Of a stretch of DNA of 64,000 nt, positions 3,237 to 53,448 are shown in pieces. This DNA comes from Caulobacterales bacterium (GTDB lineage Bacteria > Pseudomonadota > Alphaproteobacteria > Caulobacterales > Caulobacteraceae). Each line of letters opens with the position of its first letter. Position 1 is the first letter of the stretch. The notes beneath the pieces were generated by a model. It was not told the DNA's origin and did no database searches. It saw only the letters and a list, made by a program, of their open reading frames with translations. The stretch lies in contig CANJID010000001.1 of the NCBI GenBank assembly GCA_947474395.1, positions 18,083-82,082 of the forward strand, in the 5' to 3' direction. A program made the translations under genes and the position numbers.

Positions 3237-3246
3237 GCGCGACCGT

Positions 3247-4032
3247 TCAGGCGTGCATGACCTCCATCTCGCGAGTCTCCTCGCCGAACTGGCAGGCGGT
3301 GTTGGCGCGGTCCGGGATTGCGATGCGGAGCTGGTCGAAGATCGCGCCCCACGCCCCCGTGTCGCCCATCCAGTCGGACTGCGGGTGAGTCGGGAGGGCG
3401 AACACCCGCACGCGGGGGTCGAGGGCGGCGGGGTCGATCGCGACCGGGGTGAAGGCCTCGTAATAGACGAAGGCCAGGGTGAAGCTCAGGCCGGGGAACT
3501 TGGCTTCGAGGGTCCGGCAGAGCCGGTTCAGGTCCTCCGTCTCCACCGTCTTGGGGTCGGCCACGTAGGGGTGCGGCGCGGGGGACTCCAGATGCCCGCC
3601 CAGGCGGATGAACACCGTCCGCCGGCCCTTCCTCATGAAGTCGATGAAGGACCGGTACTTGTGCAGGTGCTTGGCCCGGCAGGCCTCCAGGGCCTCGGCG
3701 CTGACCATGGCCTTGTAGTCTGCGGTCCTGGGGAAATCGTGGTGATGGGCCACGCCGTACCGGTCGCAGACCGCCGTGCCGCCGTCGAACTGCATGGTCA
3801 CGGACTGCCCGAAGCCCGCGCCATCGTCGGTCAGGACGCGCTCGATCGCGCCCAGCGGGGTGACCAGCCAGTCGAACGGGCTCTTGATCCGAAAGCCGAA
3901 CCGCTTTTCGACCTGGTAGGCGACCTGGCACAGGCCGCCGAGGCTGATCAACGCCTCGTAGGCCTCGCCGCGACGCCCGAGACCCAGGGTCCGCAGCAGG
4001 CTCTTGGCCCGTCCTATGATCCGCTCGCCCAT
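3247..4032 (-). CDS. DUF1796 family protein (putative papain-like cysteine peptidase fold)
   Basis: Internal ATG of the 801-aa track ORF (MGERIIGRAKSL...). The ISLGGLCQVAYQVEKRFGFRIKSPFDWLVTP motif is typical of DUF1796. The rest of the long ORF is antisense to the tannase gene. Confidence 0.65.
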   Translation of the reverse strand: MGERIIGRAKSLLRTLGLGRRGEAYEALISLGGLCQVAYQVEKRFGFRIKSPFDWLVTPLGAIERVLTDDGAGFGQSVTMQFDGGTAVCDRYGVAHHHDFPRTADYKAMVSAEALEACRAKHLHKYRSFIDFMRKGRRTVFIRLGGHLESPAPHPYVADPKTVETEDLNRLCRTLEAKFPGLSFTLAFVYYEAFTPVAIDPAALDPRVRVFALPTHPQSDWMGDTGAWGAIFDQLRIAIPDRANTACQFGEETREMEVMHA

Positions 4033-12844: not shown

Positions 12845-13291
12845 ATGGCCGACCTGTCGCCCCTGGACCGCCTGGTCATCGAATCCGAATGCACCCGGCT
12901 CGTCTATCGCTACGCCGGCCTGAACGACGCCGGGGACTATGTGGGGGTGGCCGATCTCTTCACGGCGGACGGGTCCTTCGCCCGCCCGACCGCCCCGGAA
13001 ACGCCCCTGGTCGGGCGCGACGTGATCCGCGCCGCCTTCGCCGCCCGACCCAAGGGACGGATGAGCCGGCACATCGTCTCCAACGTCATCATCGAGGTCG
13101 AGAGCGAGACCCTGGCGCGGGGGACCAGCTACATCCTGCTGTTCACCGCCGCCGCCCCGGAGAGCGGGACCGCCAAGGCCGATCCGGTGCAGCTGGTCGG
13201 CGGCTTCTCCGACACCTTCGCCAAGGAAGACGGCATCTGGAAGTTCAGGCAGCGCCAGGGCTCGGTGTCGCTGTCCAGCGGCGGGAGCTGA
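12845..13291 (+). CDS. SnoaL-like / NTF2-fold protein
   Basis: 148 aa from an internal ATG (MADLSPLDRLVIESECTRLVYRYAGLNDAGDY...). The pattern is typical of the SnoaL_4 family. Confidence 0.65.
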   Translation: MADLSPLDRLVIESECTRLVYRYAGLNDAGDYVGVADLFTADGSFARPTAPETPLVGRDVIRAAFAARPKGRMSRHIVSNVIIEVESETLARGTSYILLFTAAAPESGTAKADPVQLVGGFSDTFAKEDGIWKFRQRQGSVSLSSGGS

Positions 13292-13294
13292 CGC

Positions 13295-13342
13295 ACTCTT
13301 CCCCCTCTGGGGTAAGTACGCCCGAAGGGCGGGAAGGGGGCT
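13295..13342. repeat. Family-A REP/MITE-like element, half copy
   Basis: ACTCTTCCCCCTCTGGGGTAAGTACGCCCGAAGGGCGGGAAGGGGGCT matches the left arms of the elements at 17318 and 36823. It fills the convergent intergenic gap. Confidence 0.8.
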
Positions 13343-13961
13343 ACCGCCGCGGCGCGGTCCCAGGCACCGGCGCGCCCGATGCGCCCGGCGTTCCCGGCGT
13401 CCGGGGCATGGTCAGCCGCAGCGTCATGCCGCGATAGACTTCGACCCGGTCCATCACCACCATGTCCTCGGCGCCGGTCTGGCCCGGATGGGCGCGGGCG
13501 ATCAGGAAGTAGGCGCCGTCCGGCAGGTCCCGGAAGGTGAAGCTGTTCTGGGCGTCGCACTTCTCCGAGCGCACGAACTGGGCGTACTCGGGCGGGGCCG
13601 GGGTGGTGCGGGCGCGCACCTCGGTGACCGAGCGGATCGCTTCCACGTCCGAGCCGTAGAGCGAGACGATGCGGTCGCGGGAGTAGCGGGTCTGCGGCGT
13701 CAGCCCGACGTCGAGGCCGGCGCAGCTCCAGGTCCCGCCGGTGCGGGGCCGATAGGCCAGTGTCCCGACGATGCTGTTGGCGCCCCGGCCGACCGACCAG
13801 GCGAAATCGGCGGTGGTGAACTGGGCCGGGCCGACCGGCGCGGGCGGTGGCGGTGGCGGGGGCGGCGGCGTGGTGGCGCAGGCGGCCAAAGTCAGGACCG
13901 CCAGGGCGGGGCCCGCGATCCTGGAAAACCTACCAAAGCTCGAGCCCTTAGCCATCGTCAC
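13341..13961 (-). CDS. Lipoprotein with poly-proline linker, function unknown
   Basis: 206 aa. Lipobox LTLAAC followed by TTPPPPPPPPPAP. The C-terminal beta-rich domain (DLPDGAYFLIARAHPG) is reminiscent of carboxypeptidase-regulatory-like folds. Overlaps the upstream dioxygenase gene by 14 nt. Confidence 0.6.
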   Translation of the reverse strand: MTMAKGSSFGRFSRIAGPALAVLTLAACATTPPPPPPPPPAPVGPAQFTTADFAWSVGRGANSIVGTLAYRPRTGGTWSCAGLDVGLTPQTRYSRDRIVSLYGSDVEAIRSVTEVRARTTPAPPEYAQFVRSEKCDAQNSFTFRDLPDGAYFLIARAHPGQTGAEDMVVMDRVEVYRGMTLRLTMPRTPGTPGASGAPVPGTAPRR

Positions 13962-14763
13962 ACCCGAAACTTGTATTCCACGCCCGGCTTTCGCTCGATG
14001 TCCGGGGGAAGTTGGCGCGCTTCTCGGAAAAGTAGCGCTGGCGGTGGTCTCCGTCGTCGAGACGGTTGTAGGTGAGATAGAGGATGCGCCGCGCGTCCTT
14101 CGTCAAGTTCGGCTTGGAGGCGTGGGGCACATAGGAGTCGAAAAAGATCACGTCGCCGGGTTCCGTGGGCGTCGGGACGAGGTCGAAGCCCGCCATCTCC
14201 GCCGCCGAAAGGGGCCGCCATTCAGGGCCGATCATGCCGGGCAGGCGCGTGACATTGGCCATTTCCAGGCAGCCGTTCTCCATGGTGGCGCGGTCGATCC
14301 CCACCAGGGCCGTGACGAACAGGTCGGCGTAGGTCGACCAGCCGGCCTGCTGGTCCTGGTGCGGCTCGAAGCCGGCGCCGCCCGCCTCCTTGAAGTTGAT
14401 CTTCTCCTTGAAGAGGCATGCCTCCCCGCCGAGCAGCTGGTCGATCGCCCGGGCCAGCCGGCCCTCGCGCACCAGGCCGTCGAAGCCCGGATGATAGGGG
14501 CAGAAGTTCTCGATCCTCTGGATCACCCGCCGGCCGGCCTCGGTCAGGCTGTCCTCGCGGTAGACCATGTGCTCGCCGGGGACCTCCGGGCGTGCGGTCA
14601 GCTCGTCGGTCCAGGCGGCGATGGCCTGCGCCTCCGCTGGGGGGAAGAAGCCGCGCGCCACCACCCAGCCCATCCGCCGGTATTCGGCCATCTGCCGGGG
14701 GTCGAGCGGTCCGCTCAGAGCCTCGGCGTCCTTCATTCGGGTCGGGCGGGTCGGGGCGTTCAT
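13948..14763 (-). CDS. Phytanoyl-CoA dioxygenase (PhyH) family Fe(II)/2-oxoglutarate dioxygenase
   Basis: 271 aa from an internal ATG (MNAPTRPTRMKD...). HxD facial-triad motif FEPHQDQQ, distal His in FFDSYVPHAS, Arg in ARRILYLTY. 7-nt gap after the upstream nucleotidyltransferase. Confidence 0.75.
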   Translation of the reverse strand: MNAPTRPTRMKDAEALSGPLDPRQMAEYRRMGWVVARGFFPPAEAQAIAAWTDELTARPEVPGEHMVYREDSLTEAGRRVIQRIENFCPYHPGFDGLVREGRLARAIDQLLGGEACLFKEKINFKEAGGAGFEPHQDQQAGWSTYADLFVTALVGIDRATMENGCLEMANVTRLPGMIGPEWRPLSAAEMAGFDLVPTPTEPGDVIFFDSYVPHASKPNLTKDARRILYLTYNRLDDGDHRQRYFSEKRANFPRTSSESRAWNTSFGCDDG

Positions 14764-14770
14764 CGGTCGA

Positions 14771-15532
14771 TCATCGATTGGCGAGCTGGGGAAGGATGGT
14801 GTGACGGGCGCGCTCCACGTCGGCCTCGAAATCGATCTCGGTCCAGGGCAGGTCGCTGACATCCACCGCCCCGAAGCGGGCGGGCTCAGCCAGCATCAGG
14901 TCGCGGATGGCCTCCTCGTACTCGACCTTCAGCACCCCCCTGGCGACATAGTCGTCGCACCGGTCCCACAGGGCCGCCGCCGTCGCCGGTGAGAAGTGGA
15001 AGAAGCCCACCGACTCCCCGTGCCAGTCGTGGGCGTGCTCGGGCTTCTTGCGGAAGTCGACGATGGTCTCGCCGCGGAAGCAGATCTTCACCGGCTCGTC
15101 CCCCGGCTCAATCTCGCGGTCCACGAGAAGCGCGTTTTCCGCCGCGCCTTCGAACAGCCGGTCGATCATCCGCGAATCGTAGAGAACGTCGCCATCCATC
15201 AGCAGCACGGGACGGCCGCTCCGCATCAGCTCGCCCTGGGTCCAGAGCGAGACCAGGCTGCCCTCGGTGTAGCGCGGGTTCTCCACGAAATTCACCCGTC
15301 CTGCCTGTCCCAGCCGCTCGACCTCGGCGCGGATTTCCGCCCCGCGATGGCCCAACGTTATAGAGACGTCCCCGACGCCGGCTTCCCCCAGCGCCTCCAG
15401 ATGGCGCTGCAGCAGAGTCTTGCCGTCGAAGCTTAGCAGGACTTTCGGCCCGTCGTGACTGTCGCCCAGCCGGCGGCCTATCCCCGCGGCAAGGATGATC
15501 GCGCCCGCGTCCCTGTGACCCACGGATGACAC
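14771..15532 (-). CDS. LicC-like nucleotidyltransferase (candidate phosphonate/phosphoalcohol cytidylyltransferase)
   Basis: 253 aa. [13 protein letters not shown]...PKVLL signature of sugar/phosphocholine NTP-transferases, and [10 protein letters not shown]. Confidence 0.8.
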
Positions 15533-15654
15533 GCCCGCGATGCTCCTGCTGCATTTCTTCGAGAACGGCGAAGGTTTATAGAGCGGGCTTGCCGCCCCGC
15601 AAGGGGAACGGGCGGGCTTACGCCCCGCCGCAGTGGAAGTGTTGGATTTTCGCC

Positions 15655-17310
15655 ATGCCCCTCGACCAAGCCCGCCAGGGCGCCGCCTCGACCGACAAGG
15701 CCGCCGCGCCCGCCACGCGCTTCGCCGCGCTGCGGCAGGAAATCTTCGGGGACCGGCTGTCCTTCCTGATGGAGGCCCACGACGGCCTCTCGGCCAAGAT
15801 CGTCCAGGAGCAGGGCTTCCGCGGCATCTGGGCCTCGGGCCTGACCATGTCGGCGGCGCTGGGCCTGCGCGATTCGAACGAGGCCTCCTGGACCCAGGTG
15901 CTGGACGTCCTGGAGTACATGTCCGACGCCGTCTCCATCCCGATCCTGGTGGACGGGGACACCGGCTACGGCAACTTCAACAATGTGCGGCGACTGGTGC
16001 GCAAACTCTGCGATCGCGGGATCGCCGGGGTCTGCATCGAGGACAAGCTGTTCCCCAAGACCAACTCCTTCATCGGCGAGGCCCAGCCGCTCGCCGACAT
16101 CGAGGAGTTCTGCGGGCGCCTCAAGGCGGGCAAGGACAGCCAGACCGACGACGATTTCACCATCGTCGCCCGGGTCGAGGCCCTGATCTCCGGGCGCGGC
16201 ATGGAGGAGGCCCTGCGGCGGGCCGAGGCCTATCATTCGGCCGGCGCCGACGCGATCCTGATCCACTCCAAGAAGGCCGTGGCCGATGAGATCTTCACCT
16301 TCTGCGAGCGCTGGGGAAACCGCGCTCCGGTGGTGATCGTGCCGACCATGTACTACGCCACCCCGACCGACCTGTTCCGGCAGGCGGGGGTCTCCACCAT
16401 CATCTGGGCCAACCACCTGCTGCGCTCCTCGATCTCGGCCATGCGCGAGACCGCCCGCCGCATCCACGAGGACCAGTCCCTGGCCGAGGTGGAGGGCCGC
16501 GTCGCCACGGTGAAGGAAATCTTCGGCCTGGTGGGCAACGCCGAGCTGGAGGAGGCCGAGCGCCGCTACCTGCCGGGCGGGGCCAAGACCCGCGCCATCG
16601 TCCTGGCCGCCTCGGGCGGGGACCTGGGCGAACTGACCCGCGACGCCCCCAAGTGCATGATCGATATCCGTGGCCGCTCCCTGCTGCAGCGCCTGGTCTC
16701 CACCCTCAACGAGGGCGGGGTCCGCGAGGTCGCGGTGGTGCGCGGCTATCGCAAGGAGGCCGTCAGCCTGCCCGGCATCGTCACCGTCGACAACGATCGC
16801 TACGCCGAGACGGGCGAGCTCTATTCGCTCTCGACCGCCCGCCACCTGATCGAAGGCGAGACGGTGGTGGCCTATGGGGACGTCCTCTTCCGCAACTTCA
16901 TCCTCGAGAGCCTGATGGGCAGCGGCGCGGACATTGTCCTGGCCGTCGACGCGCTGAACCTGCCGGGCGCCCGCGCCGGGGTGCGCGACCTCGTGGTCGC
17001 CGACCGGGTCTTCTCCGGGGACTACCTCGACGACGCCCCGGTGAGCCTGGTCCGCATGGGCCACGACGTCCTCTCCGAGGCCGCCAGCGGCGAGTGGATG
17101 GGCCTGGCCCGCTTCAGCGCCAAGGGCGCCGAATGGCTCCGCGCCGAGATCGAGGCCATGGAGGCCGAGGGCCTGCTGGAGACCGCCGACCTGCCCTCCC
17201 TTCTGACGCGCCTTGCCGCCAAGCACCCGGTGCGGGTGAAGTACTTCAGCGGCCACTGGATGGACGTCGACAACCTCACCGACCTCGCCGACGCCCGCAA
17301 CTTCACCTGA
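15655..17310 (+). CDS. ppm: Phosphoenolpyruvate mutase fused to a C-terminal nucleotidyltransferase domain
   Basis: 551 aa from an internal ATG. The N-terminal ~300 aa carry [10 protein letters not shown] and [13 protein letters not shown] (PEP mutase EDKxxxxxNS). The C-terminal ~220 aa carry AIVLAASGG...[14 protein letters not shown]...VAYGDVLF (NTP-transferase fold). Confidence 0.9.
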
Positions 17311-17544: not shown

Positions 17545-18711
17545 ATGATCACCGCAGACGAGTTCATGGCCGAAGCCGGCCGCCGCGGCTTCGACTTCTA
17601 CACCGGCGTGCCGTGCAGCTATCTCACGCCCCTGATCAACGGGGTGCTCTCCAACCGCGCCCTGACCTATGTGGGGGCGGCAAGCGAGGGGGAGGCGGTG
17701 GCCATCGCGGCAGGCGCGTATCTGGCGGGCCGCAAGACGGTCGTGATGTGCCAGAACTCCGGCCTGGGCAACGCGGTCAATCCGCTGACCTCGCTGAACG
17801 CGCCCTTCCGCATTCCGACCCTGTTCATCACCACCTGGCGCGGCCGCCCCGGCGAGCCTGACGAGCCCCAGCACGAGGTGATGGGCCGCATCACCCAGGA
17901 CCTTATCGGCCTGATGGAGATCGAGCAGGCGCCGTTCCCGAACGAGGCGGCGGCCCTCGCCCCCGCCATCGACGCCGCCGTCCGTCACATGGATTCGGCC
18001 TCGCTTCCCTTCGCCTTCGTGATGAAGAAGGGCGACGTCCAGGATGGCGGCCTCGACCAGTCGCCCCTGTCCCGCCCGGCCGCCGGCCGGCGCGAGGACT
18101 TCGCCACCGGCGGCGAACGTCCGGCCCGCGCCGCCGTGCTGACCCGGTTCCTAGAGCTGACCGACGACCGCACCGCCGTCATCGCCACGACCGGCAAGTG
18201 CGGGCGCGAGCTCTTCACCCTCGCCGACCGGGACCAGCACCTCTACCAGGTCGGCTCCATGGGCGGGGCGAGCGGCATGGCCCTGGGGCTGGCCCTCAAC
18301 ACGGAACGCCCGGTGGTCGTGCTCGACGGGGACGGGGCGGCCCTGATGAAGCTCGGGACCTTCGCCACCGTCGGGGCCTACGCCCCGAAGAACCTGCTCC
18401 ACATCCTCCTGGACAACGGCGTGCACGATTCCACCGGGGGGCAGGCGACCGTCTCGGCGTCCGTGGACTTCGCCGCCATCGCGCTGGCCTGCGGCTACGG
18501 CTACGCGGCGTCCTGCGACAGTCTTGAGGGTTTCACTGCAGCCTTCCGCGCCGCCGCTTCGGCTACACGCCCGGCCCTGATCCACATGCGCATGGCCCCG
18601 GGCTCGATCGACAAGCTCGGCCGCCCGACCGTGACGCCCGCGGAGGTCGCCGCCCGCTTCAAGGCCTTCGTCGCCGGGGCGCCGGTCCGCAGCCCCGAGG
18701 CCGTTGCATGA
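17545..18711 (+). CDS. ppd: Phosphonopyruvate decarboxylase (ThDP-dependent)
   Basis: 388 aa. FYTGVPCSYLTPLIN N-terminus, ThDP motif VLDGDGAALMKLG...LDNGVHDSTGGQ. Confidence 0.9.
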   Translation: MITADEFMAEAGRRGFDFYTGVPCSYLTPLINGVLSNRALTYVGAASEGEAVAIAAGAYLAGRKTVVMCQNSGLGNAVNPLTSLNAPFRIPTLFITTWRGRPGEPDEPQHEVMGRITQDLIGLMEIEQAPFPNEAAALAPAIDAAVRHMDSASLPFAFVMKKGDVQDGGLDQSPLSRPAAGRREDFATGGERPARAAVLTRFLELTDDRTAVIATTGKCGRELFTLADRDQHLYQVGSMGGASGMALGLALNTERPVVVLDGDGAALMKLGTFATVGAYAPKNLLHILLDNGVHDSTGGQATVSASVDFAAIALACGYGYAASCDSLEGFTAAFRAAASATRPALIHMRMAPGSIDKLGRPTVTPAEVAARFKAFVAGAPVRSPEAVA

Positions 18712-19697
18712 AGTGGCCGGCCATCCTCGGCATCCTGATCGGCCTTGGCCTGGCGATCACGCTGATCGCCGCCAACGACGTGGGCAAGATCCTGGCCGCC
18801 CTCGTCGGCGCCGGCTGGGGCATCCTCCTGGTGATCGTCCTGCGCCTGCCCCAGACCATCGCGTCCGCGCTCGGATGGCGCGCCCTGGTGGCCGAGCCGG
18901 GCCCCAATATCGCGGTCTTCACCGGCCTGCGCTGGATCCGGGAGGCGGTGAACAACCTCCTGCCGGTGGCCGGAGTCGGCGGCGACGTCGTCCGCGCCCG
19001 CCTGCTCGCCCTCCAGGGCGTCAGCCTGAAGGGGGCCTCGGCCAGCGCCGCGGTGGACCTCAGCGTCGAGATGGCCAGCCAGATCGTCTTCGCCCTGATG
19101 GGCGTCGGCATGCTGCTGCTCTATCGCCCCGGGGTGGACACCCTCGGTTGGGTGCTGGGCGTCATCGGCGTCGGGGCGGTCATCGCCGGCTCCTTCATGC
19201 TCAGCCAGCGCTTCGGCCTGTTCAAGCTGGTGGAGAAGACCCTGGTCGCGGCCTCCGAGAAGGCCGGCTGGGCGGCGCTCGGCGACATCTCCGGCCTGCA
19301 TGAGGCGGTGGTGGCCCTCTACCGCAGCCCCGGCCGCTTCCTCCATTCGGGCGCCTGGCACATGGCGTCCTGGTTCTTCGGCGTGCTCGAGCTGTGGGCG
19401 GCCCTGCATGTGCTCGGGGTCGAGGCCGGGTGGCGCGAGGCCCTGATCATCGAGAGCCTCGGCCAGGCCATCCGCGGCGCCGCCTTCGCCGTGCCGGGGG
19501 CGCTCGGCGTGCAGGAGGGCGGCTACGTCCTGGTCTGCGCCCTCTTCGGCATCCCGCCGCAGCAGGCCATCGCCCTGTCCCTGATCCGGCGCATCCGCGA
19601 CCTCGTCCTGGGCGTGCCGGCCCTCATCGTCTGGCAGCGCATCGAGGGGCGTATGTTCGCCCGCCGCGCCGCTGCATCCGAGGCCGCGCCGTCGTGA
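18708..19697 (+). CDS. Polytopic membrane protein of the lysyl-PG-synthase TM-region/UPF0104 (flippase-like, HpnL-related) family
   Basis: 329 aa, multiple TM helices. RWIREAVNNLLPVAGVGGDVVRARLL motif is typical of the family. ATGA overlap with ppd and GTGA overlap with the transaminase. Confidence 0.7.
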   Translation: MKWPAILGILIGLGLAITLIAANDVGKILAALVGAGWGILLVIVLRLPQTIASALGWRALVAEPGPNIAVFTGLRWIREAVNNLLPVAGVGGDVVRARLLALQGVSLKGASASAAVDLSVEMASQIVFALMGVGMLLLYRPGVDTLGWVLGVIGVGAVIAGSFMLSQRFGLFKLVEKTLVAASEKAGWAALGDISGLHEAVVALYRSPGRFLHSGAWHMASWFFGVLELWAALHVLGVEAGWREALIIESLGQAIRGAAFAVPGALGVQEGGYVLVCALFGIPPQQAIALSLIRRIRDLVLGVPALIVWQRIEGRMFARRAAASEAAPS

Positions 19698-20797
19698 GCG
19701 ACAGCCCGCTCCTCCTCACCCCCGGGCCCCTGACCACGCGGGTCGAGACCCGCCGCGCCATGATGCGCGACTGGGGCTCGCGCGATCCGGCCTTCATCGC
19801 CCTGACCGCCGAGCTGCGCGAGCGCCTGCTGAAGGTGGCGGGCGGGGAGGGGACGCACGTCGCCATCCCCCTCCAGGGCAGCGGCACCTTCATCGTCGAG
19901 GCGGCCGTCGCCTCCATCGTTCCCCCCGAGGGCAAGCTGCTGGTCCTGGCCAACGGCGCCTACGGCGAGCGGATGATCGAGATCGCGCGCCGCATGGGCC
20001 GCGCCGTCGAGGCCCTGCGCTGGGCCGAGGACCGCCCCGTCGAGCCCGGCGCCGTCGCCTACGCCCTGGCCGCCGACCGGGACATCACCCACGTCGGCCT
20101 GATCCACTGCGAGACCACCACGGGCCTGCTCAATCCGCTGCAGGCGATCGCGCAGGCGGTGTCCGACGCCGGCCGGAGCCTGATCCTGGACGCCATGTCG
20201 AGCTTCGGCGCCCTGCCCATCGATCTTCAGACGACCCCGGTCACGGCCCTGCTCGCCTCTTCCAACAAGTGCCTGGAAGGCGTGCCGGGCATCGGCTTCG
20301 CCCTGGTCGACGCCCTCGCCGTCGGCAAGGCCAAGGGGAACAGCCCCTCCCTCAGCCTGGACCTTGCCGCCCAGCACCAGGGTTTCGAGGCCAACGGCCA
20401 GTGGCGCTTCACCCCGCCGGTCCAGGTGGTCGCCGCGGCCGTGGAGGCCCTGCGTCTGCTGGAGGCCGAGGGCGGCCCACGCATGCGCCTCTCCCGTTAC
20501 CAGGCCAATTTCGATACCCTCGCCGTCGGCATGCTGCGGCTGGGCTTCCCGCTCTACCTCGATCCCGGCCTGCAGGCGCCCATCATCGCCACCTTCCTGC
20601 CGCCCACGGATCGGGCATTCGCCTTCGAGCGGCTGTACGCGGGACTGGCGCAAAGAGGTTTTCTGATCTATCCGGGGAAATTGACGCAGGCGGAAAGCTT
20701 CCGCATTGGTTGTATAGGCGCGCTTGAGCCTGCGGATTTTGCTAGGTTGCTCGTAGCAATAGAGGCGGTCGCCGTCGAAATGGGCCTCTCGGCCTGA
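19694..20797 (+). CDS. phnW: 2-aminoethylphosphonate:pyruvate aminotransferase (PhnW/AepZ type)
   Basis: 367 aa from an internal GTG (VSDSPLLLTPGPLTT...). Class V aminotransferase with PLP lysine in SSNKCLEG. Confidence 0.88.
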   Translation: MSDSPLLLTPGPLTTRVETRRAMMRDWGSRDPAFIALTAELRERLLKVAGGEGTHVAIPLQGSGTFIVEAAVASIVPPEGKLLVLANGAYGERMIEIARRMGRAVEALRWAEDRPVEPGAVAYALAADRDITHVGLIHCETTTGLLNPLQAIAQAVSDAGRSLILDAMSSFGALPIDLQTTPVTALLASSNKCLEGVPGIGFALVDALAVGKAKGNSPSLSLDLAAQHQGFEANGQWRFTPPVQVVAAAVEALRLLEAEGGPRMRLSRYQANFDTLAVGMLRLGFPLYLDPGLQAPIIATFLPPTDRAFAFERLYAGLAQRGFLIYPGKLTQAESFRIGCIGALEPADFARLLVAIEAVAVEMGLSA

Positions 20798-20811: not shown

Positions 20812-21324
20812 GTGAGCCGGATGCTCAAGTTTTTCGCCATCACTGCCGTCCTGGCCACCCTGGTCTCTTCGCCCGCCGCGGCGGAGACCGGGCCGATCAG
20901 AGACATGGCCGCCGGCCTGAAGCGCCTGGTCGCCGCCGGCGCGCCCGGCGACGACGCCGCGCCGCTGCAGATCGTGGTCTGGAACCTGAAGAAGGCGCTG
21001 GGCACCGTGCGCGTGGCCATCTGCACCCCGGCTACCTTCCTGAAGACCGACTGTCCGTGGGAGGGCGTCGCCCAGGCCACGCCCCAGGGCGCGGTGGTGA
21101 CCATCGCCGGCCTGCCGCCGGGGGTCTACGCGGCCCAGGTGTTCCAGGACGAGAACGACAACCACCAGGTCGACCGCAATGTGCTGGGCGTTCCCAAGGA
21201 AGGGGTGGGCTTCTCCAACGACGCCCCAATCCTGCTGAAGGCGCCCAGCTTCGCCGCCGCCTCCTTCGAATATGCGGGCGAGGGCATGACCCTGCGCGTG
21301 AAGCTGCGCCACTTCACGCCGTAA
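20812..21324 (+). CDS. DUF2141 secreted protein
   Basis: 170 aa, signal peptide. QVFQDENDNHQVDRNVLGVPKEGVGFSNDA motif characteristic of DUF2141. Starts 15 nt after phnW. Confidence 0.6.
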   Translation: MSRMLKFFAITAVLATLVSSPAAAETGPIRDMAAGLKRLVAAGAPGDDAAPLQIVVWNLKKALGTVRVAICTPATFLKTDCPWEGVAQATPQGAVVTIAGLPPGVYAAQVFQDENDNHQVDRNVLGVPKEGVGFSNDAPILLKAPSFAAASFEYAGEGMTLRVKLRHFTP

Positions 21325-21375: not shown

Positions 21376-22758
21376 TCAACCGAACAGGGGGACCGGTCCG
21401 CGGCCGCCGCCGTTCCAACTGGCCCAGTTCGGGAACACGTACGGCATGTCCGCCGCAGGGACGCCGAACCGCTGGACCACGCCGCCAAGATATTCCTCCA
21501 GGGCGATCGACGGGATCCAGCGACCGTCGTCGGACGAATCCTCGGGCCCGCGGAACGTCGTATCTGGGTATCGGCCGTGTATCCGGGCCCCGGCGAGTCC
21601 CCCGCCAATCACCAGATGGTTCGACCCCCAGGCATGGTCCGAGCCCGCCTGTGCGTTGCCGCGATAGACCCGGCCGAAGTCCGAGAGGGTGAAGGTGGTG
21701 ACGTCGGCGGCCACGCCGAGCGCTTCCATCGCTTTTTGGAAGGCGGCGAGCGCGGCGGCGAGGGCGGCGTAGAGGTTGGCCTGCCGGCCTGCGGTGTTGT
21801 CGGTCTCGTCGACCTGGCCCGCGTGGGTGTCGTAGCTGCCGTGGCCGGCGAAAAAGATCTGCCGGGCGTGGCCAAGCGCGGACCGGGCTTCGATCAGCCG
21901 CGCGATCCTCAGGAGCTGGGCCGCGATGTCGGTGTTAAGCATAACGCCCTTGGCATCCTTGAAATAGGCGTCGACGGTGGCGGTTCGGGTCAGGATCGCG
22001 TTTGCGGCGAAGGCCTGATCGTAGGCGCGCGAGAAGCCGAGCCCGGTCAGCCGCGTCACCGGTCCCTGGGAGTCCGCGTCGGCGAAGGCGGTCAGGCCAG
22101 CTTGCCTTGCGACCACCACCGCGTCGCGGCTCGAGGCGTCGTAACCGTGGCGCGCGATGCTCCCCGTGGGCGGCAACACCAGGGGAGAGCTTCGCTGGCC
22201 GAGCAGCGCCAGGCTGGAGCCCGCCACCGAGATCAGCGGCGATATCGCGGGCGCGCCGTCCATCCGGTCATTGATGCGGCCCATGAAGCCGTCGACGTTC
22301 ATGGCTCTGGCCTGCAGCCCTTGCCACACATGCTGCTGGCCAGAGTGTGACATCAGGTGCAGGGGGCGCAGGTCCGGCCGCGACAGGTAGAGCCGTCGGT
22401 CGAGCGGCTGGAACAGCACGCCCGTGTTGAGCACGACGTTCAGCGAGCCCTTGTCCCAGAGGGGGCGAAGCGGCGCCAGGCTCGGGTGCAGACCGAAGGG
22501 CGTGCCCGCAAGGGGCTTGAGAGCCTCCCGCGCGAGCGCGAGCTGGGGTCCCCGGCCGGCGGCGTACCCCGCATAGCGGTCGTCGGTCGGCACGATCATG
22601 TTCCAGCCGTCGGCGCCCCCGAAGAGGAAAACGCCGACCATGGCGCGGTAGGGCGCGCGGGTCTGGGCCATGGAGGCCGACCGGCCAAGCTGGGCCAGGG
22701 CGGCCGCTGCCCCCGATCCGGCGGCGAGCCTGACGATGTCGCGGCGGGAGAGGGTCAT
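21376..22758 (-). CDS. DUF1501 protein (sulfatase/alkaline-phosphatase superfamily) with Tat signal
   Basis: 460 aa from an internal ATG (MTLSRRDIVRLAAGSGAAAALAQ, a twin-arginine signal). C-terminal GSDHAWGSNHLVIGG. Confidence 0.8.
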   Translation of the reverse strand: MTLSRRDIVRLAAGSGAAAALAQLGRSASMAQTRAPYRAMVGVFLFGGADGWNMIVPTDDRYAGYAAGRGPQLALAREALKPLAGTPFGLHPSLAPLRPLWDKGSLNVVLNTGVLFQPLDRRLYLSRPDLRPLHLMSHSGQQHVWQGLQARAMNVDGFMGRINDRMDGAPAISPLISVAGSSLALLGQRSSPLVLPPTGSIARHGYDASSRDAVVVARQAGLTAFADADSQGPVTRLTGLGFSRAYDQAFAANAILTRTATVDAYFKDAKGVMLNTDIAAQLLRIARLIEARSALGHARQIFFAGHGSYDTHAGQVDETDNTAGRQANLYAALAAALAAFQKAMEALGVAADVTTFTLSDFGRVYRGNAQAGSDHAWGSNHLVIGGGLAGARIHGRYPDTTFRGPEDSSDDGRWIPSIALEEYLGGVVQRFGVPAADMPYVFPNWASWNGGGRGPVPLFG

Positions 22759-22760
22759 AT

Positions 22761-24455
22761 CTAGCGGTCCACCTGGAACAGAGGCGAGCTGGCGGCGAGG
22801 TACAGGGCGGTCTGGGCCCGTTGGCGCGCCTGCGTCGTCGCGTTCTTGTTGACGATGGCGGTCAGCGCCCCCCGCATGGCGCTGCGCTGCGTCGCGCTCA
22901 TGCCGTTGCCGAGCAGCAGCAGGTTCACGCGGTCCATCAGCCCCTCGACGTCCGCGGCCGCGGCCTCCCAGTCTGCCCACAGGGGCTTCGTGCCCGTGGC
23001 GCTCTGCGTGTGGGGCTTGAACTCCTTGCGGTCGGCATCGCCTTCGACGGTCCAGTCGTAGACGAGGTTGTGCCGGCCGACGTCGGCCGCCGTCGTCAGC
23101 AGCTTCGACGGGGGGCTCACCAGCGGCGCGCCGAGCGGCAGCGGATAGTCCGGCGGATAGAAGTTGAACACCGAGGGCGCGGACCACAGCGGCTGGCCCA
23201 TCACCCCGTCGCGCGTGGTGAAGACGTAGCCGTCCGTGGTCATGCCGATGGCCCGGGCCAGGGCGACGGCCAGCAGCACCGGCTCCTTCACCTTGCCTTC
23301 GATGGCCGCGAGACGGTCCCCGCGCGCCTCCGGGTCGAGCAGGATCGCCCGCACCACCGACCTCATGCTTCCGCGCACGCCCTGGCCGTTGTCGGCGAAC
23401 ACCCGCGCGACCCGTTCGACGTAGGCGGGGGTGGGGTTGGAGACGACGAGCTGCTGGATCAGCGACTTGGAAACATACGGCGCCACGTTGGGGTGGTTGA
23501 AGACCGCGTCCACGACCGCGTCCACGCTTGCGCTCTGGCTTGCCTGGGCGGGGACCGTCACGCCCAGGAAGCTCTTGGCGTCCGCGTCGTAATCCGAGGC
23601 CGAGCGGATCATCCGCTGGGTGTAGTCGATGCGGCTCTTGTCCTTCGGCGACGCCCCGGGGAAGCGCACGCAGGTCCATCCGGTCAGGGCCCGCGCGACT
23701 TCGTGGACGTCGCTGCCGGTGTAGGCCGGTATCGGCGCGCCTTGGACGTCGAGCTTGAGGCTGCCGTCGAGGTTCAGCATGTCCTCGCCGATCGAGAACA
23801 GCTGCATCAGTTCCCGCGCGTAGTTCTCGTTCGGCGAAGCTTTGGTCGACCCCGCCATGTCGAGGTAGTCGCCCATGTACGCGTTCAGGGTGACCGCCTT
23901 CAGCAGGTCCCGGTAGTTGCCGAAGGCGTTGTCCAGCAGCAGCTGGTGATAGGTCGCGAGGCCGGCCGTCGAGTCGATATCCTGGTTGGCGACGACCAGC
24001 AGCTCGGCCAGGGCGAGCGCCACTCTCTGGCGGAGCTGGTCGTTCCGCATGACCGCGTCGGCGTAGAAGCGCATCGCGACCGGCGTCGACTGCCAATAGG
24101 TCGCCTTGCAGCTCGCGGCCTCCGACCCGGATTTCGACCGGCAATAGCTTTGCGGGATATTCCGGTCGGCGATGATGTCCTGGTAGCCGCTCTCGGCGAG
24201 GGCGAACTGCTCGTCCAGCCAGGCGGCGGGTCCCACCTGGCTCATATGCGCGATCAGCGCCGGGGTCGGTCCGAACGTCGCCTGCTTGGCCAGCCGGACC
24301 GCATCGGGAGCGGAAAACGCCGCAACCGTGACGGCCTCGGGCGCCATGAACCGCGGCTCGGGCGGGTTCGCCCCTGTCAGGGCCGCAGCGCCCGCGCACG
24401 CCGCCGCGCAAGCCAGGGCGGAAGCGGCGAGGATCGACGGCGATGGCGACGCCAT
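22761..24455 (-). CDS. DUF1800 protein
   Basis: 564 aa. ...MGDYLDMAGSTKASPNENYARELMQLFSIG... motif of DUF1800. Stop lies 3 nt before the DUF1501 start (a canonical pair). Confidence 0.8.
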   Translation of the reverse strand: MASPSPSILAASALACAAACAGAAALTGANPPEPRFMAPEAVTVAAFSAPDAVRLAKQATFGPTPALIAHMSQVGPAAWLDEQFALAESGYQDIIADRNIPQSYCRSKSGSEAASCKATYWQSTPVAMRFYADAVMRNDQLRQRVALALAELLVVANQDIDSTAGLATYHQLLLDNAFGNYRDLLKAVTLNAYMGDYLDMAGSTKASPNENYARELMQLFSIGEDMLNLDGSLKLDVQGAPIPAYTGSDVHEVARALTGWTCVRFPGASPKDKSRIDYTQRMIRSASDYDADAKSFLGVTVPAQASQSASVDAVVDAVFNHPNVAPYVSKSLIQQLVVSNPTPAYVERVARVFADNGQGVRGSMRSVVRAILLDPEARGDRLAAIEGKVKEPVLLAVALARAIGMTTDGYVFTTRDGVMGQPLWSAPSVFNFYPPDYPLPLGAPLVSPPSKLLTTAADVGRHNLVYDWTVEGDADRKEFKPHTQSATGTKPLWADWEAAAADVEGLMDRVNLLLLGNGMSATQRSAMRGALTAIVNKNATTQARQRAQTALYLAASSPLFQVDR

Positions 24456-24552: not shown

Positions 24553-25143
24553 CTACGGAGCGCGCTGCTTCATCAGGGCGGCGAGGCTCAGCCACAGCGC
24601 TATGGCCGGGGTGATCAGGCTCGCCGCCACCAGCATGGGCTTGATCTGGCCGAGCCAGATCAGGATCGGCACCAGGATCATCAGGTCGTCGGGATCGACG
24701 TCGAAGCGCCCGAACCGCCAGGGCTTCAGCTCCACCAGCTTCCAGACGTTGAGCTGCCAGAACATCACCCCGATGCCGAGGCCGGCGGACACCCCGAGCC
24801 AGACCGCGATCGAGCCCCACACCGGGATCAGGCCGATGCCGATGCCGATGAAGCCCGCCACCCCGGCGATGCAGTCGCAGATCAGGTCGTAGACGTGCCC
24901 GCCCGGGCTGGACTGGCCGGTTTGGCGGGCCAGCTCCCCGTCCGCCCGGTCGAGCAGCATGGAGAGCACGAACACCAGTCCGCCGACGCCGAGCCACAGG
25001 GCCCCGGCCTTGGCGTAACAGACGGCCGAGGCGATCGCGGTGATCAGGCGCAGGGTGGTGATCTGGTTCGGCGTGACCTTGGTCGGGGCGATCGCCCGCA
25101 CCACGGGCCGCACGATCTGGTGGATCACCGTATTGGAGCTCAC
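24553..25143 (-). CDS. CDP-alcohol phosphatidyltransferase family protein
   Basis: 196 aa. Complete DRADGELARQTGQSSPGGHVYDLICD motif (D-x2-DG-x2-AR-x8-G-x3-D-x3-D). 4-5 TM helices. Confidence 0.85.
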   Translation of the reverse strand: MSSNTVIHQIVRPVVRAIAPTKVTPNQITTLRLITAIASAVCYAKAGALWLGVGGLVFVLSMLLDRADGELARQTGQSSPGGHVYDLICDCIAGVAGFIGIGIGLIPVWGSIAVWLGVSAGLGIGVMFWQLNVWKLVELKPWRFGRFDVDPDDLMILVPILIWLGQIKPMLVAASLITPAIALWLSLAALMKQRAP

Positions 25144-25298: not shown

Positions 25299-27926
25299 AT
25301 GAAGCCATCCCTGATCGCCCGGATCGTCGCCGCCAGCTGCAGCTATGCCTGGGCGGTGATCGCCGCGTCCCTGGTCCTCGTCGCCGTGGCGGTGGTCTAT
25401 GTCGGCGGCCACTTCGCCATGACCACCGACACCGCCGAGCTGATCTCGCCCAAGCTGGCCTGGCGCCAGAACGAGGCGGCCCTCGACAAGGCCTTCCCGC
25501 AGAACAACGACCTGATCGCCGTGGTGGTCGACGGCGCCACGCCCGAGCGCGCGGAGGAGGGGGCCGCCGCCTTGTTCGCCAAGCTGTCGGCCATGAAGGA
25601 CAGTTTCCCCCGCGTCACCCGCCCCGACGGCGGGCCCTTCTTCGCCCAGAACGGCATTCTCCTGCTCCCCACCAAGGAGGTGGAGGCCACCGCCAACCAG
25701 CTCCTCGCGGCCCAGCCCTTCCTCGGCGCCCTGGCCGCCGATCCGAGCCTGCGCGGGGTGATGGGCAGCCTGTCGACCGCCCTGATGGGGGTGAGCGGCG
25801 GGCAGGCCACGATCGACGACCTCGACCGGCCCATGAAGGCCTTCGGCGACGCCCTGCAAGGCGTGGTCGAGGGCAAGCCCAAGCCGTTCTCCTGGCGCGC
25901 CCTGATCTCCGGCCAGACGCCGGGCACCCGCGAGACCCGCAAGTTCATCCTGGTGCAGGCCAAGCTCGACTACGGGGCGCTGGAGCCGGGGTCCAAGGCC
26001 TCCGAGGCCATCCGCGGCGTCGCCCGCTCGCTGCAGCTCGACAAGGACCACGGCGTCGACGTCCGCCTCACGGGCTCGGTGCCGCTGGCCGACGAGGAGT
26101 TCGCCAGCCTGTCGGACCGGGCGGTGCTGATGACCAGCGCCATGATCCTGGCCATGATCGGCATGCTGTGGCTCGGGGTGCGCTCGGTCCGGATCATCGT
26201 CTGCATCCTTGTCGCCACCTTCATCGGCCTGGTCTTCACCGCCGCCGCGGGCCTGGCGGTGGTCGGGCGCTTCAACCTGATCTCGGTCGCCTTCATCCCG
26301 CTCTTCGTCGGCCTGGGAGTGGATTTCGGCATCCAGTTCAGCCTGCGCTACCGGGCCGAGCGGCGGCAGTTCCCGGACCTGAAGCAGGCCCTGGCGGCGG
26401 CGGGCGCCTCGGTCGGCAATTCCCTGGCCCTGGCCGCGGCGGCCATCGCCGTGGGCTTCTTCGCCTTCCTGCCCACCGCCTATATCGGCGTCTCCGAGCT
26501 TGGCGTGATCGCGGGTATCGGCATGATCATCGCCTTCGCCCTGTCGGTGACCCTGCTACCGGCCCTGGTGTGCGTCGCCAAGCCTTCGGGCGAGGACGAG
26601 GAGGTCGGCTACAAGAGCTTCGCCCCCATCGACCGCTTCCTGGAGGAGCGCCGCTCCCTGGTGCTGAAGATCGCCCTGGGCGCGGCCATCGTCTGCGCCT
26701 GCCTGATGCCGTTCCTGCGGTTTGACTTCAATCCGCTGCACCTGCGCAGCCCGCACGTGGAATCCATGCGGGCGCTGGCGGACCTGATGAAGGACCCCGA
26801 CCGCACCCCCAACACCATCGACATCCTCACCCCGTCCCTGGCCGACGCCGACGCCCTGGCCAAGCGCATCTCCGCCCTGCCGGAGGTGTCCCAGGCGGTG
26901 ACCCTGTCGAGCTTCATCCCCTCCGACCAGGACGCCAAGCTGGCCGCCCTGAGCGACGCCTCCCTGCTGCTGGACCCCAGCATCAATCCCTTCGAGACCA
27001 CGCCCCCGCCCACCGACGCCGAAACCATCAAGTCCCTGGCCGAAACCGCCGCCGGCCTGCGCGCGGCCGCCACGGGAGACAGCGGAGGGGCGAAGAACGC
27101 CCGCCGCCTCGCCGACCTCTTGGACCGCCTCGCCAAGGCCGGGCCGGAGCTCCGCACCAAGGCCGCCGCCACCCTGATGTCGCCGCTGGGCACGGTGCTG
27201 GACCAGCTTCGCTCCACCCTCCAGGCGCAAGCTGTGACCAGGGAGAGCCTGCCCGAGGACATCCGGTCCGACTGGGTGGCCGCCGACGGCCGCGCCCGCA
27301 TCCAGGTCTTCCCCAAGGGCGACTCCAACGACAACGCCAACCTGCGGCGCTTCTCCAAGGCCGTGCGCGCCGTGGCCGCCGACGCCGCCGGCACGCCGAT
27401 CTCGATCCAGGAGGCGGGCAACACCATCGTCACCGCCTTCCTGCAGGCCGGGCTGTGGTCGTTCCTGGCCATCATCGCCCTGTTGTGGGCGGTGCTGCGC
27501 CGCCCGAAGGACGTGCTCCTGACCATGGTCCCGGTGGTGCTGACGGGCCTTCTGACGCTGGGCACCTGCGTGGTGATCTTCCAGCCGATCAACTTCGCCA
27601 ACATCATCGCCCTGCCGCTGCTGTTCGGCATCGGGGTCGCCTTCAACATCTACTTCGTCATGGCCTGGCGGGCGGGGGCGACGAACCTGCTGCAGTCCAG
27701 CCTGACGCGAGCGGTGCTGTTCAGCGGTCTGACCACCGGCATGGCCTTCGGCGCCCTGATCCTGTCCAGCCACCCCGGCACGGCCAGCATGGGCAAGCTG
27801 CTGATCATCTCCCTGTTCTGGACCCTGGTGACCGCCCTGCTGTTCGAGCCGGCCTTGCTGGGCAAGCACGACGGCTCCCGCGAGGAAGTCTGCGACCCGG
27901 AGCCGCTAGAGGAGAGGGCGGTCTGA
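25299..27926 (+). CDS. hpnN: Hopanoid-associated RND/MMPL-type transporter
   Basis: 875 aa with two 6-TM bundles and large periplasmic loops. The N-terminal sequence pattern and hpn context match HpnN. Confidence 0.85.
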   Translation: MKPSLIARIVAASCSYAWAVIAASLVLVAVAVVYVGGHFAMTTDTAELISPKLAWRQNEAALDKAFPQNNDLIAVVVDGATPERAEEGAAALFAKLSAMKDSFPRVTRPDGGPFFAQNGILLLPTKEVEATANQLLAAQPFLGALAADPSLRGVMGSLSTALMGVSGGQATIDDLDRPMKAFGDALQGVVEGKPKPFSWRALISGQTPGTRETRKFILVQAKLDYGALEPGSKASEAIRGVARSLQLDKDHGVDVRLTGSVPLADEEFASLSDRAVLMTSAMILAMIGMLWLGVRSVRIIVCILVATFIGLVFTAAAGLAVVGRFNLISVAFIPLFVGLGVDFGIQFSLRYRAERRQFPDLKQALAAAGASVGNSLALAAAAIAVGFFAFLPTAYIGVSELGVIAGIGMIIAFALSVTLLPALVCVAKPSGEDEEVGYKSFAPIDRFLEERRSLVLKIALGAAIVCACLMPFLRFDFNPLHLRSPHVESMRALADLMKDPDRTPNTIDILTPSLADADALAKRISALPEVSQAVTLSSFIPSDQDAKLAALSDASLLLDPSINPFETTPPPTDAETIKSLAETAAGLRAAATGDSGGAKNARRLADLLDRLAKAGPELRTKAAATLMSPLGTVLDQLRSTLQAQAVTRESLPEDIRSDWVAADGRARIQVFPKGDSNDNANLRRFSKAVRAVAADAAGTPISIQEAGNTIVTAFLQAGLWSFLAIIALLWAVLRRPKDVLLTMVPVVLTGLLTLGTCVVIFQPINFANIIALPLLFGIGVAFNIYFVMAWRAGATNLLQSSLTRAVLFSGLTTGMAFGALILSSHPGTASMGKLLIISLFWTLVTALLFEPALLGKHDGSREEVCDPEPLEERAV

Positions 27927-36941: not shown

Positions 36942-37598
36942 GAGCCCCAACAACGGCCCCAGCGCCGTCCGGTGGCGCTGCAGGGCCTTGAACGCGGCCT
37001 CCACCTCGCGGGCGGTGCGCATCAGGGCGGGGAGCTGGCCGGGGTCCTTCAGGATCGAGCCGGTGATGGCGGCGTAGTTGATCCCCCCGTCCGGCTTCAT
37101 GCAGTTCAGGAAGGCCGGCGGCAGGTCGTGGTGGGTGGTGTCCGACACCACCCGCACGGCGGCGAAGGGCAGGCCGTGCTCGGCGGCGACGCGGGCGGCC
37201 ACGTGGCTTTCCATGTCCACCGCCAGGGCCCCGGTTCCTTCGCGGAGGCGCCGCTTCTCCGCTCCCTCCATGACGATCACCTCCGAGCCGTAGAAGTCCG
37301 CGTGCCGGGCCCCCGCCAGGGCCGCCAGGATCGCCGCCGTCCAGGCCTCGTCGGCGGCATGCCGCGCGCCCTCGCTGATCACCTCGCGGGCCACCAGGCA
37401 GTCCGCCACCTGCAACGAGGGGTCCAGGGCGCCGGCGATGCCGATGCTGATCACCCCCCGGGGGCGCCGCTCGGCGATCGCCGCGGCGATGCGCTCCGCC
37501 AGGGCGCCTGAGAGCCCTCCGCCCGCGATGGTGCGTATTTCGGGGTGGCCGACGATGCGCTCCTCGCGCGTCAGGCCCATCACCGCCAGCACGGCCAT
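36939..37598 (-). CDS. hpnG: Hopanoid-associated nucleoside phosphorylase-family enzyme (adenosylhopane nucleosidase)
   Basis: 219 aa. PNP/UDP fold (GIAGALDP..., AVDMESHVAARVA). Matches the HpnG pattern and context. Confidence 0.8.
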   Translation of the reverse strand: MAVLAVMGLTREERIVGHPEIRTIAGGGLSGALAERIAAAIAERRPRGVISIGIAGALDPSLQVADCLVAREVISEGARHAADEAWTAAILAALAGARHADFYGSEVIVMEGAEKRRLREGTGALAVDMESHVAARVAAEHGLPFAAVRVVSDTTHHDLPPAFLNCMKPDGGINYAAITGSILKDPGQLPALMRTAREVEAAFKALQRHRTALGPLLGL

Positions 37599-37727
37599 GC
37601 CGCATCCCTCCCGTCAGAAGCCTGGGGTTCTAGCGTCCGCGGCCGGGGTGCGCACCTGCCGGCGGAGCCAAAAGCGCGCGGGGACGTTCCGCTCTCGCAC
37701 TATCCCCCTGAAAACCGGAGTTCCGCC

Positions 37728-53087: not shown

Positions 53088-53365
53088 GATCTGACGTTCC
53101 CTTTGGAGGGAAGCCTTTAAGCGTTCCATCCAGGCCTAAAGCCGGACGCCAAATGGCAACGCCAGACCAAATTATTGATTATCGAACTTGTTGGGAGACT
53201 AAGGGCCGAATCTATTCTGGGGGGCAAGGCGTAAACTCCATACCCTCGGCCTCGAGCCAAAAGATCCACGCTTAAGCTCTCAAAAGATGGCTTTTGCGCG
53301 CGTTCGGTGAAGCTTGGCCGGCGAAGCCGCCGCCCGCCTCGCCGGCTGTGGCCGTCGGGCAAGGC

Positions 53366-53407
53366 CAAAACGCAACATCGGCCGCCCCAGTGTTGGAGCG
53401 GCCGATG
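53366..53407 (-). terminator. Rho-independent terminator of S-layer gene 2
   Basis: Minus strand CATCGGCCGC-TCCAACACTGGG-GCGGCCGATG (10/10 bp) followed by TTGCGTTTT. Confidence 0.75.
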
Positions 53408-53448
53408 CCGAAGTCTCAAGATGGGTTCGCCGGAGACCGGCGGGCCCG

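Follow-up and report, generated by a model that had tools for sequence, protein, structure and literature searches.

The DNA analysed here, called the window throughout, is a stretch of 64,000 nucleotides (nt) of contig CANJID010000001.1 from a freshwater metagenome-assembled genome of a Caulobacterales bacterium (GCA_947474395.1). Our subject is a tightly packed minus-strand operon at positions 15532-13341, which encodes, in this order, a stand-alone nucleotidyltransferase (NT2), a PhyH-family dioxygenase (hereafter PhyH) and a lipoprotein, and which is divergent from a gene for a phosphoenolpyruvate (PEP) mutase fused to another nucleotidyltransferase domain (Ppm-NT1). A preliminary description of the locus had given the same arrangement: its open reading frames (ORFs), coordinates and divergent orientation were confirmed, its distance of 122 nt between the NT2 start and the ATG of the ppm fusion at 15655 is exact, and the contents that it listed (a stand-alone NTP-transferase, a PhyH dioxygenase and a lipoprotein with nine prolines) were borne out by Pfam and by reading of the sequence. 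The features of the operon are given below, with protein lengths in amino acids (aa).

14771..15532, minus strand: NT2, stand-alone LicC/PntC-like nucleotidyltransferase, 253 aa (GTG start; Pfam NTP_transf_3)
13948..14763, minus strand: PhyH-family Fe(II)/2-oxoglutarate dioxygenase, 271 aa (Pfam PhyH, E = 1.1e-22)
13341..13955, minus strand: lipoprotein with a poly-Pro tether and a PA1324-like beta-sandwich, 204 aa (lipobox, nine Pro, Foldseek)
15533..15654: divergent intergenic region between NT2 and ppm, 122 nt (direct sequence reading)

All three ORFs carry a coding signature, with a third-position guanine-plus-cytosine (GC) content of 0.86-0.92 against about 0.70 GC for the window. The maximal ORF of PhyH (13948-14862, 304 aa) would overlap NT2 by 92 nt and the homologues of the protein are 252-270 aa long, so that the start is likely the ATG at 14763, 7 nt past the NT2 stop, which gives a protein of 271 and not 304 aa. 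The ATG of the lipoprotein gene, at 13955, lies within the last PhyH codons, with an 8-nt overlap at the PhyH stop (ATGGCTAA). A consensus scan of 13100-15800, uninformative at 70% GC, returned no sigma-70-like or terminator-like sites. The sequencing runs that matched (n = 14) were all DNA-type metagenomes from freshwater or lakes.

Identity of the nucleotidyltransferase and the dioxygenase

NT2 belongs to NTP_transf_3 (PF12804, E = 1.4e-16), and among solved structures the PntC domain of T. denticola Tde1415 (6pd1, E = 7.7e-9) comes closest to it, with residues 11-251 aligned to 5-239. This full-length alignment agrees with the earlier designation of the protein as LicC-like, which can now be given as PntC/LicC-like; LicC itself (1jyk, E = 3.9e-5) is the second match in the PDB. 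Over 136 aa the protein and the fused NT1 domain have 35% identity, and for NT1 the order of the structural matches is reversed, LicC (1jyk, E = 4e-11) standing ahead of 6pd1 (E = 2.5e-6). Among 61 orthologues the N-terminal G-x-G-x-R loop of NT2 is retained, R21 without exception and G17 and G19 in at least 95% of them, and D113, D115 and E206 are invariant in all 61. Metal and amine ligand positions were assigned from the 6pd1 alignment together with the residue names of Rice et al. (2019, PMC6697681), who describe Glu104 and Glu196 of Tde-PntC as ligands of the amine of 2-aminoethylphosphonate (AEP) and report Asp at these amine-ligand positions, with a larger pocket, in LicC. In the alignment E206 corresponds to Glu196, and D113, which is Asp also in LicC, corresponds to Glu104. 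NT2 is similar to PntC (PDB 6PD1/6PD2) in its LicC-like fold, its equivalent of Glu196 and its location next to ppm, but the match amounts to just 38 bits, the Glu104 equivalent is Asp as in LicC, and NT2 is also found in genomes without ppm (G172, G297 and G016).

In NCBIfam, NT2 is matched best by an inositol-1-phosphate cytidylyltransferase (IPCT) domain, at 57 bits. An assignment as an ordinary sugar-1-phosphate transferase was rejected: the best matches are cytidylyltransferases of the PntC, LicC and IPCT types, and 57 of 80 loci have the gene next to PhyH.

For PhyH (PF05721), the catalytic HQD...H...R triad pointed out in the preliminary description corresponds to H135, D137, H214 and R225, and all 96 aligned relatives have these residues, as well as R226, unchanged. 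Its closest curated family is NF052437, the methylphosphonate hydroxylase PhnY*, at 147.9 bits, more than 100 bits ahead of the ectoine hydroxylase model (40.9 bits), and orthologues of the protein reach up to 184 bits on the PhnY* model. The suggested kinship to PhnY* consequently holds in so far as this is the nearest curated family, while the score stays far under the equivalogue cut-off. With the alpha-hydroxylases PhnY, PhnY* and FzmG the protein has the PhyH fold and the HxD...H...R motif in common; it differs from them in this low score, and in its biosynthetic setting, which lacks a PhnZ partner.

A maximum-likelihood tree of PhyH with 96 rows, made by a quick IQ-TREE search and rooted at the midpoint, places 89 orthologues in one clade (support 100), apart from seven paralogues of 35% identity. 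Within the tree, the copies embedded in hopanoid (hpn) operons form a basal grade, and those next to NT2 and ppm are nested inside. The paralogues (L175-L181, from genomes G169, G166, G371, G376, G244, G073 and G148; about 35% identical) score 114-125 bits on the PhnY* model and have varied, unrelated neighbours, such as a peptide ABC transporter, aspartate 4-decarboxylase, a methyltransferase and a sterol-type monooxygenase. Three loci labelled as Solirubrobacterales/Actinomycetota and Janthinobacterium lividum (L064, L071 and L073) have NT2-PhyH(-ppm) clusters that are nested among Acetobacteraceae, a placement that points to mis-binning or recent transfer. In one locus of the hpn type, L075, an HD-domain gene (3198-3800, plus strand, 200 aa) stands directly upstream of the PhyH homologue, the sole such case seen.

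Conservation of the gene pair and its link to hopanoid loci

A scan with one genome per species gave at least 414 relatives of PhyH, of which the best 80 loci were kept, mostly from Alphaproteobacteria and with 52-74% identity; their gene content was scored by tblastn with the window proteins. Cultured carriers of the cluster include Sphingomonas sp. Leaf242 (L009), Caulobacter sp. S45 (L014), Skermanella aerolata KACC 11604 (L052) and Roseiterribacter gracilis (L056). NT2 lies immediately upstream of PhyH in 57 of these loci, ppm is present in 41 and both NT2 and ppm in 40, many of the loci without ppm or NT2 being short contigs. Because of this adjacency, and the presence of ppm beside it in half of the loci, NT2 and PhyH are a conserved pair. 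Further, 42 loci have a homologue of the cytidine diphosphate (CDP)-alcohol transferase within 8 kb of PhyH and 22 have at least one hopanoid gene at that distance; the gene downstream of PhyH is variable and mostly convergent. Among the 23 loci without an adjacent NT2 are seven (L040, L054, L065, L067, L075, L078 and L079) in which PhyH is located inside an hpn operon, between hpnC and hpnB and beside GT2/HpnB and squalene synthase genes; the Ppm fusion is on another contig in five of five genomes with such an embedded copy. In four of the 23 (L026, L028, L032 and L054), PhyH adjoins a CDP-alcohol transferase and an LPG_synthase_TM gene.

In the window, the CDP-alcohol transferase gene is divergent from hpnN, with which the adjoining hopanoid region begins:

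25299..27926, plus strand: HpnN, hopanoid transporter, first gene of the hopanoid region (NF052374, 1158 bits, cut-off 1100)

The region extends to 50760 and includes hpnN, hpnM, dxs, ispA (farnesyl diphosphate synthase), ispH, hpnH, hpnG, shc, hpnE, hpnD, hpnC, hpnB and hpnA, with HpnM, HpnH, HpnG, Shc, HpnE, HpnD, HpnC, HpnB and HpnA all exceeding their model cut-offs. Past hpnA there are two large minus-strand ORFs (50835-55665; 764 and 738 aa) with partial SapA-protease-like and serralysin-like matches.

Co-occurrence was counted in a class sample of 400 genomes, the identical set being used in every search, with a threshold of E <= 1e-30 for PhyH:

PhyH orthologue: 36 of 400 genomes, 35 with shc (the exception is 62% complete)
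Ppm over cut-off: 39 of 400 genomes, 36 with shc (the three exceptions are short, unfused frames)
HpnL-like protein: 90 of 400 genomes, 88 with shc
shc: 121 of 400 genomes

One unpublished genome (G245) is counted in both the shc and the HpnL figures. HpnL is found in 34 of the 36 genomes that carry PhyH, and of the 36 genomes that hold both ppm and shc, 16 have the two on one contig within 20 kb of each other. This tight and quantifiable coupling of the tailoring module to hopanoid loci is the new lead obtained here. In the same sample, two genomes of the window's family (G075 and G373) and one of its order (G246) had no PhyH, Ppm, Shc or HpnL at the thresholds used, which may mean that this lineage in particular gained, or kept, the entire phosphonate and hopanoid region.

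The phosphonate cluster and its published relatives

On the other side of the divergent intergenic region follow the genes of AEP synthesis and, up to hpnN, those of the remaining cluster:

15655..17310, plus strand: Ppm-NT1, PEP mutase fused to a LicC-like nucleotidyltransferase (TIGR02320, 389 bits, cut-off 319.55; NTP_transf_3)
17545..18711, plus strand: phosphonopyruvate decarboxylase, Ppd (TIGR03297, 430 bits, cut-off 312.5)
18708..19697, plus strand: HpnL-family membrane protein, LPG_synthase_TM, flippase-like (TIGR03476, 286 bits, cut-off 195.65; PF03706)
19694..20797, plus strand: 2-aminoethylphosphonate:pyruvate transaminase, AEPT (NF010006, 465 bits, cut-off 296)
20812..21324, plus strand: DUF2141 secreted protein (PF09912, E = 4.9e-25)
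21376-24455, minus strand: DUF1501/DUF1800 pair (PF07394, 5e-23; PF08811, 6e-89)
24553..25143, minus strand: CDP-alcohol phosphatidyltransferase, phosphatidylinositol phosphate (PIP)-synthase-like (PF01066, E = 7.7e-13)

The membrane protein resembles HpnL by its score, well over the model cut-off, but the usual place of HpnL is the hpn operon, whereas here the gene is located inside the phosphonate cluster and a second HpnL-family gene of the same genome (273 bits) lies outside the window on another contig (G000:C33:21933-22871). The CDP-alcohol phosphatidyltransferase, which reaches about 55 bits on the NCBIfam models for archaetidylinositol phosphate synthase and PIP synthase and so stays under their cut-offs, is likely the head-group transferase. 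The alignment of AEPT to NF010006 begins at residue 102 of the long ORF. The DUF2141 protein, detected by tblastn in three of the 80 loci (L002, L003 and L027), had no match among PDB sequences. Between it and the CDP-alcohol transferase, the DUF1501/DUF1800 pair splits a cluster that is contiguous elsewhere (L002 and L009).

This gene set belongs to a known family. Li & Horsman (2022, PMC8942020) describe a 'Burkholderiales_CDP-OH' group that makes up 318 of 882 ppm neighbourhoods, about one third in RefSeq, and that they equate with Group 1 of the phosphonolipids in Yu et al. (2013). Its core has seven genes, for Ppm, Ppd, AEPT, a putative alpha-ketoglutarate/Fe(II) oxygenase, two PntC proteins (one fused to Ppm) and two proteins of phospholipid biosynthesis, and all seven are present in the window; from the name of the group and from our own loci, we infer that the two phospholipid genes are those for the CDP-alcohol transferase and the LPG_synthase_TM/HpnL protein. 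The same authors predict a lipid with a 1-hydroxy-AEP head group, and by their account the product of no member has ever been characterised or isolated. The window accordingly shares with the published group its gene content and its predicted head group. In contrast to that group, the window member is alphaproteobacterial, from a freshwater genome, and not from Burkholderiales (it is set beside the Burkholderia clusters by description), its CDP-alcohol transferase is separated by the DUF1501/DUF1800 pair, it has an extra lipoprotein, and it borders on hpnN and the hopanoid genes.

Because the window holds this published core, the central idea of the preliminary description, a hydroxylated AEP served by two nucleotidyltransferases, was right in direction but is not new, as it matches the prediction of Li & Horsman. 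As to the genomic context, that description had correctly placed the NT2-PhyH pair beside ppm and had overlooked the HpnL-like protein, the CDP-alcohol transferase and the hopanoid locus. In the sources covered here, a link between phosphonates and hopanoids was previously made only as a passing remark: 'an undiscovered terpene-phosphonate' was proposed for Acetobacteraceae of the Roseomonas type (Guzman et al. 2021, PMC8776678) and a 'possible phosphonoterpene' was mentioned for Nitrosococcus (Li & Horsman 2022, PMC8942020), and the supplementary tables of hopanoid papers may list PhyH-type neighbours of shc. The function of HpnL is listed as unknown in two recent hopanoid surveys (bioRxiv 10.1101/2025.07.29.667474; PMC12583986).

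Proposed pathway

We regard NT2 and PhyH as the tailoring half of a conserved pathway that places an AEP-type head group on a membrane lipid and that is linked to hopanoid biogenesis, and give this reading a probability only slightly better than even, roughly 55%. With the gene identities, synteny and co-occurrence observed above, every substrate, the order of the steps and the acceptor lipid are predicted as follows. AEP would be made by Ppm, Ppd and the transaminase, and head groups activated with cytidine monophosphate (CMP) would be made by the Ppm-fused NT1 and by NT2. PhyH, as a PhnY-like Fe(II)/2-oxoglutarate hydroxylase, would most likely hydroxylate AEP at C1, with the AEP being free, CMP-bound or lipid-bound, and NT2, as its companion, would most likely serve the hydroxylated or tailoring branch. 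The CDP-alcohol phosphatidyltransferase would then transfer the activated head group to a lipid alcohol, and the HpnL-type protein would handle the product in the inner membrane. The genomic linkage suggests that production and export of the lipid go together with those of hopanoids, and the acceptor lipid may be bacteriohopanepolyol itself.

Several points weigh against this pathway. Judged by its 148 bits against the cut-off of 500 bits, PhyH is not a PhnY* equivalogue, and the enzyme roles of the CDP-OH cluster family are predicted ones, no product of the family having been isolated according to Li & Horsman (2022, PMC8942020). In four large or closed assemblies (G021, G358, G309 and G053) ppm and shc are 0.9-3.7 Mb apart, and 9 of the 36 genomes with ppm and shc have no PhyH at E <= 1e-30. 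The co-occurrence counts are descriptive, with no statistical test, and overstate independence because the sampled genomes are related. Given its overlapping start, the lipoprotein may have a local role. Finally, a permissive search found no Ppm in G172 (98% complete), G297 (95%), G319 (91%) and G033 (88%), and since G172 and G297 nevertheless keep NT2, PhyH and the transferase, home-made AEP is not strictly required by the module.

These genomes deserve closer description. Over the 36 genomes with PhyH, Ppm exceeds its cut-off in 27, is fragmented or below the cut-off in two more and is not found in seven; in G055 it is split across contig ends. The best Ppm scores are 108 bits in G172, 49 in G297 and 102 in G319, and G033 has no match. 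The order of genes in G172 is hpnN, NT2, PhyH, HpnL and CDP-alcohol transferase, beside shc, hpnD and hpnB, and G297 and G016, also without ppm, keep NT2, PhyH and the CDP-alcohol transferase. Such modules weaken a strictly phosphonate reading, and the module may use a non-phosphonate or imported head group. They suggest a division of labour in which NT2 would be one of four genes in a hopanoid-linked module for transfer and tailoring, and NT1 part of a module for AEP supply. Such a division gives a reason, grounded in the data, why two transferases are present.

A more specific form of the pathway is tentative and, in our estimate, clearly less probable than the general one. Here NT2, PhyH, the HpnL-type protein and the CDP-alcohol transferase would constitute a hopanoid head-group module, in which CMP-AEP or CMP-1-hydroxy-AEP is the donor for bacteriohopanepolyol, HpnL and HpnN carry the lipid to the outer membrane, and the product is a phosphono-hopanoid. 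No report of a phosphono-hopanoid lipid class was found in the literature searched; a B. cenocepacia preprint deals with a PhnU permease only.

Alternative explanations

The most probable of the alternatives is hopanoid tailoring with no phosphonate involved, which we consider unlikely. What NT2 activates might then be a phosphate ester, for instance phosphoethanolamine or a hopanoid intermediate that carries a phosphate, PhyH might hydroxylate that head group or the hopanoid side chain, and the AEP genes would be a later add-on in some lineages. This would account for the module beside hpnN and shc in G172 without ppm, for the similar cases of G297 and G016, for the seven loci with PhyH between hpnC and hpnB, and for the IPCT domain as best NCBIfam match of NT2. 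The basal position of the hpn-embedded copies and the nested position of the ppm-adjacent ones point the same way, but the tree comes from a quick search with a midpoint root. Against it, the nearest curated relative of PhyH is a hydroxylase of small phosphonates, ahead by over 100 bits, most PhyH genomes do have Ppm (the 27 over cut-off and the two with fragmented or weaker matches), all five genomes with an hpn-embedded PhyH have the Ppm fusion elsewhere, and import of AEP is possible in the genomes without ppm.

A second alternative concerns the third gene of the operon, which the preliminary description had taken as a component of the system at the periplasmic face. A lipobox is the motif [LVI][ASTVI][GAS]C at the end of a signal peptide; in the protein encoded here it is L23-A24-A25-C26, within the reading LTLAAC-ATT-PPPPPPPPP-AP, with nine consecutive Pro. 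No family was found for the protein in Pfam or NCBIfam, and a collection of 5.8 billion proteins yielded just 23 homologues. The lipobox, a Pro run and two invariant Cys are conserved in the family, and the column of the lipobox Cys is retained wherever the N-terminus is present. An AlphaFold (AF2) model made on the family alignment has a pLDDT (predicted local distance difference test) score of 85.3, and Foldseek ranks PA1324 of P. aeruginosa first (3qec, E = 1.5e-7; 1xpn, E = 1.1e-6; probability 1.00; template modelling (TM) score 0.46-0.63), and phmmer gives E = 0.03. The C-terminal domain thus shares the fold of PA1324 (1XPN/3QEC), a putative carbohydrate-binding beta-sandwich, but the identity is about 20%, and the lipobox, the poly-Pro tether and the conserved Cys pair are present only in the lipoprotein family.

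The claim of a periplasmic component is not supported by the distribution of the gene. By tblastn the lipoprotein is in none of the 80 PhyH loci, and, in reverse, none of 80 metagenome loci of lipoprotein homologues has a cluster gene at 50 bits or more, the only exceptions being two weak matches of short-chain dehydrogenase/reductase (SDR) proteins to HpnA. On account of these two counts, the lipoprotein is a lineage-specific local passenger and not a component of the pathway. The rival notion, that it is a genuine lineage-specific periplasmic part of the pathway, for example by binding the lipid or its head group at the outer membrane, has some attraction: the 8-nt overlap of its start with the PhyH stop makes translational coupling likely, and so the lipoprotein is probably co-expressed with PhyH here; its fold is putatively ligand-binding; and a second secreted protein of beta-sandwich type, DUF2141, stands at the other end of the cluster. 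We nevertheless hold it to be quite improbable, as PhyH, NT2, ppm, ppd, AEPT, HpnL and the CDP-alcohol transferase are all absent from the 80 homologue loci, where the neighbours are housekeeping genes (zinc alcohol dehydrogenase (Zn-ADH), enoyl-CoA hydratase, threonine dehydratase-like and HemY), and a comparison of the lipoprotein with the DUF2141 protein gave no similarity (best E = 0.36). A BA14K-like protein is encoded in the hopanoid region of the window (37545-38210, plus strand), and in four metagenome loci (L147, L161, L165 and L173) a BA14K-like gene directly follows the lipoprotein homologue, a recurrence that may be a coincidence or a common envelope theme.

Least probable of all is a catabolic PhyH of the PhnY type that starts oxidative C-P cleavage of AEP for phosphate recovery, as might be read from the Joint Genome Institute (JGI) label '2-aminoethylphosphonate dioxygenase' on several homologues of 65-70% identity (an automated name) and from the HD-domain gene of L075, since the scan of window proteins from 11 to 25 kb gave no PhnZ-like HD-domain gene, 40 of the 80 loci have PhyH with a nucleotidyltransferase partner and in divergent orientation to the genes that make AEP, and the HD protein of L075 matches a YfbR-like 5'-deoxynucleotidase about as well as a generic HD domain.

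Implications

The NT2-PhyH pair, HpnL and the CDP-alcohol transferase travel together, beside or inside hopanoid operons and almost never without squalene-hopene cyclase, and this joins the question of the product of the cluster family to that of the function of HpnL. HpnL is one of the last genes of hopanoid loci without a function. If the tentative phosphono-hopanoid form of the pathway is true, HpnL would gain a function for the first time and the product of a very common family of phosphonate clusters would be identified, with a bearing on how hopanoid biomarkers are read and on estimates of the environmental phosphonate that is locked in membranes.

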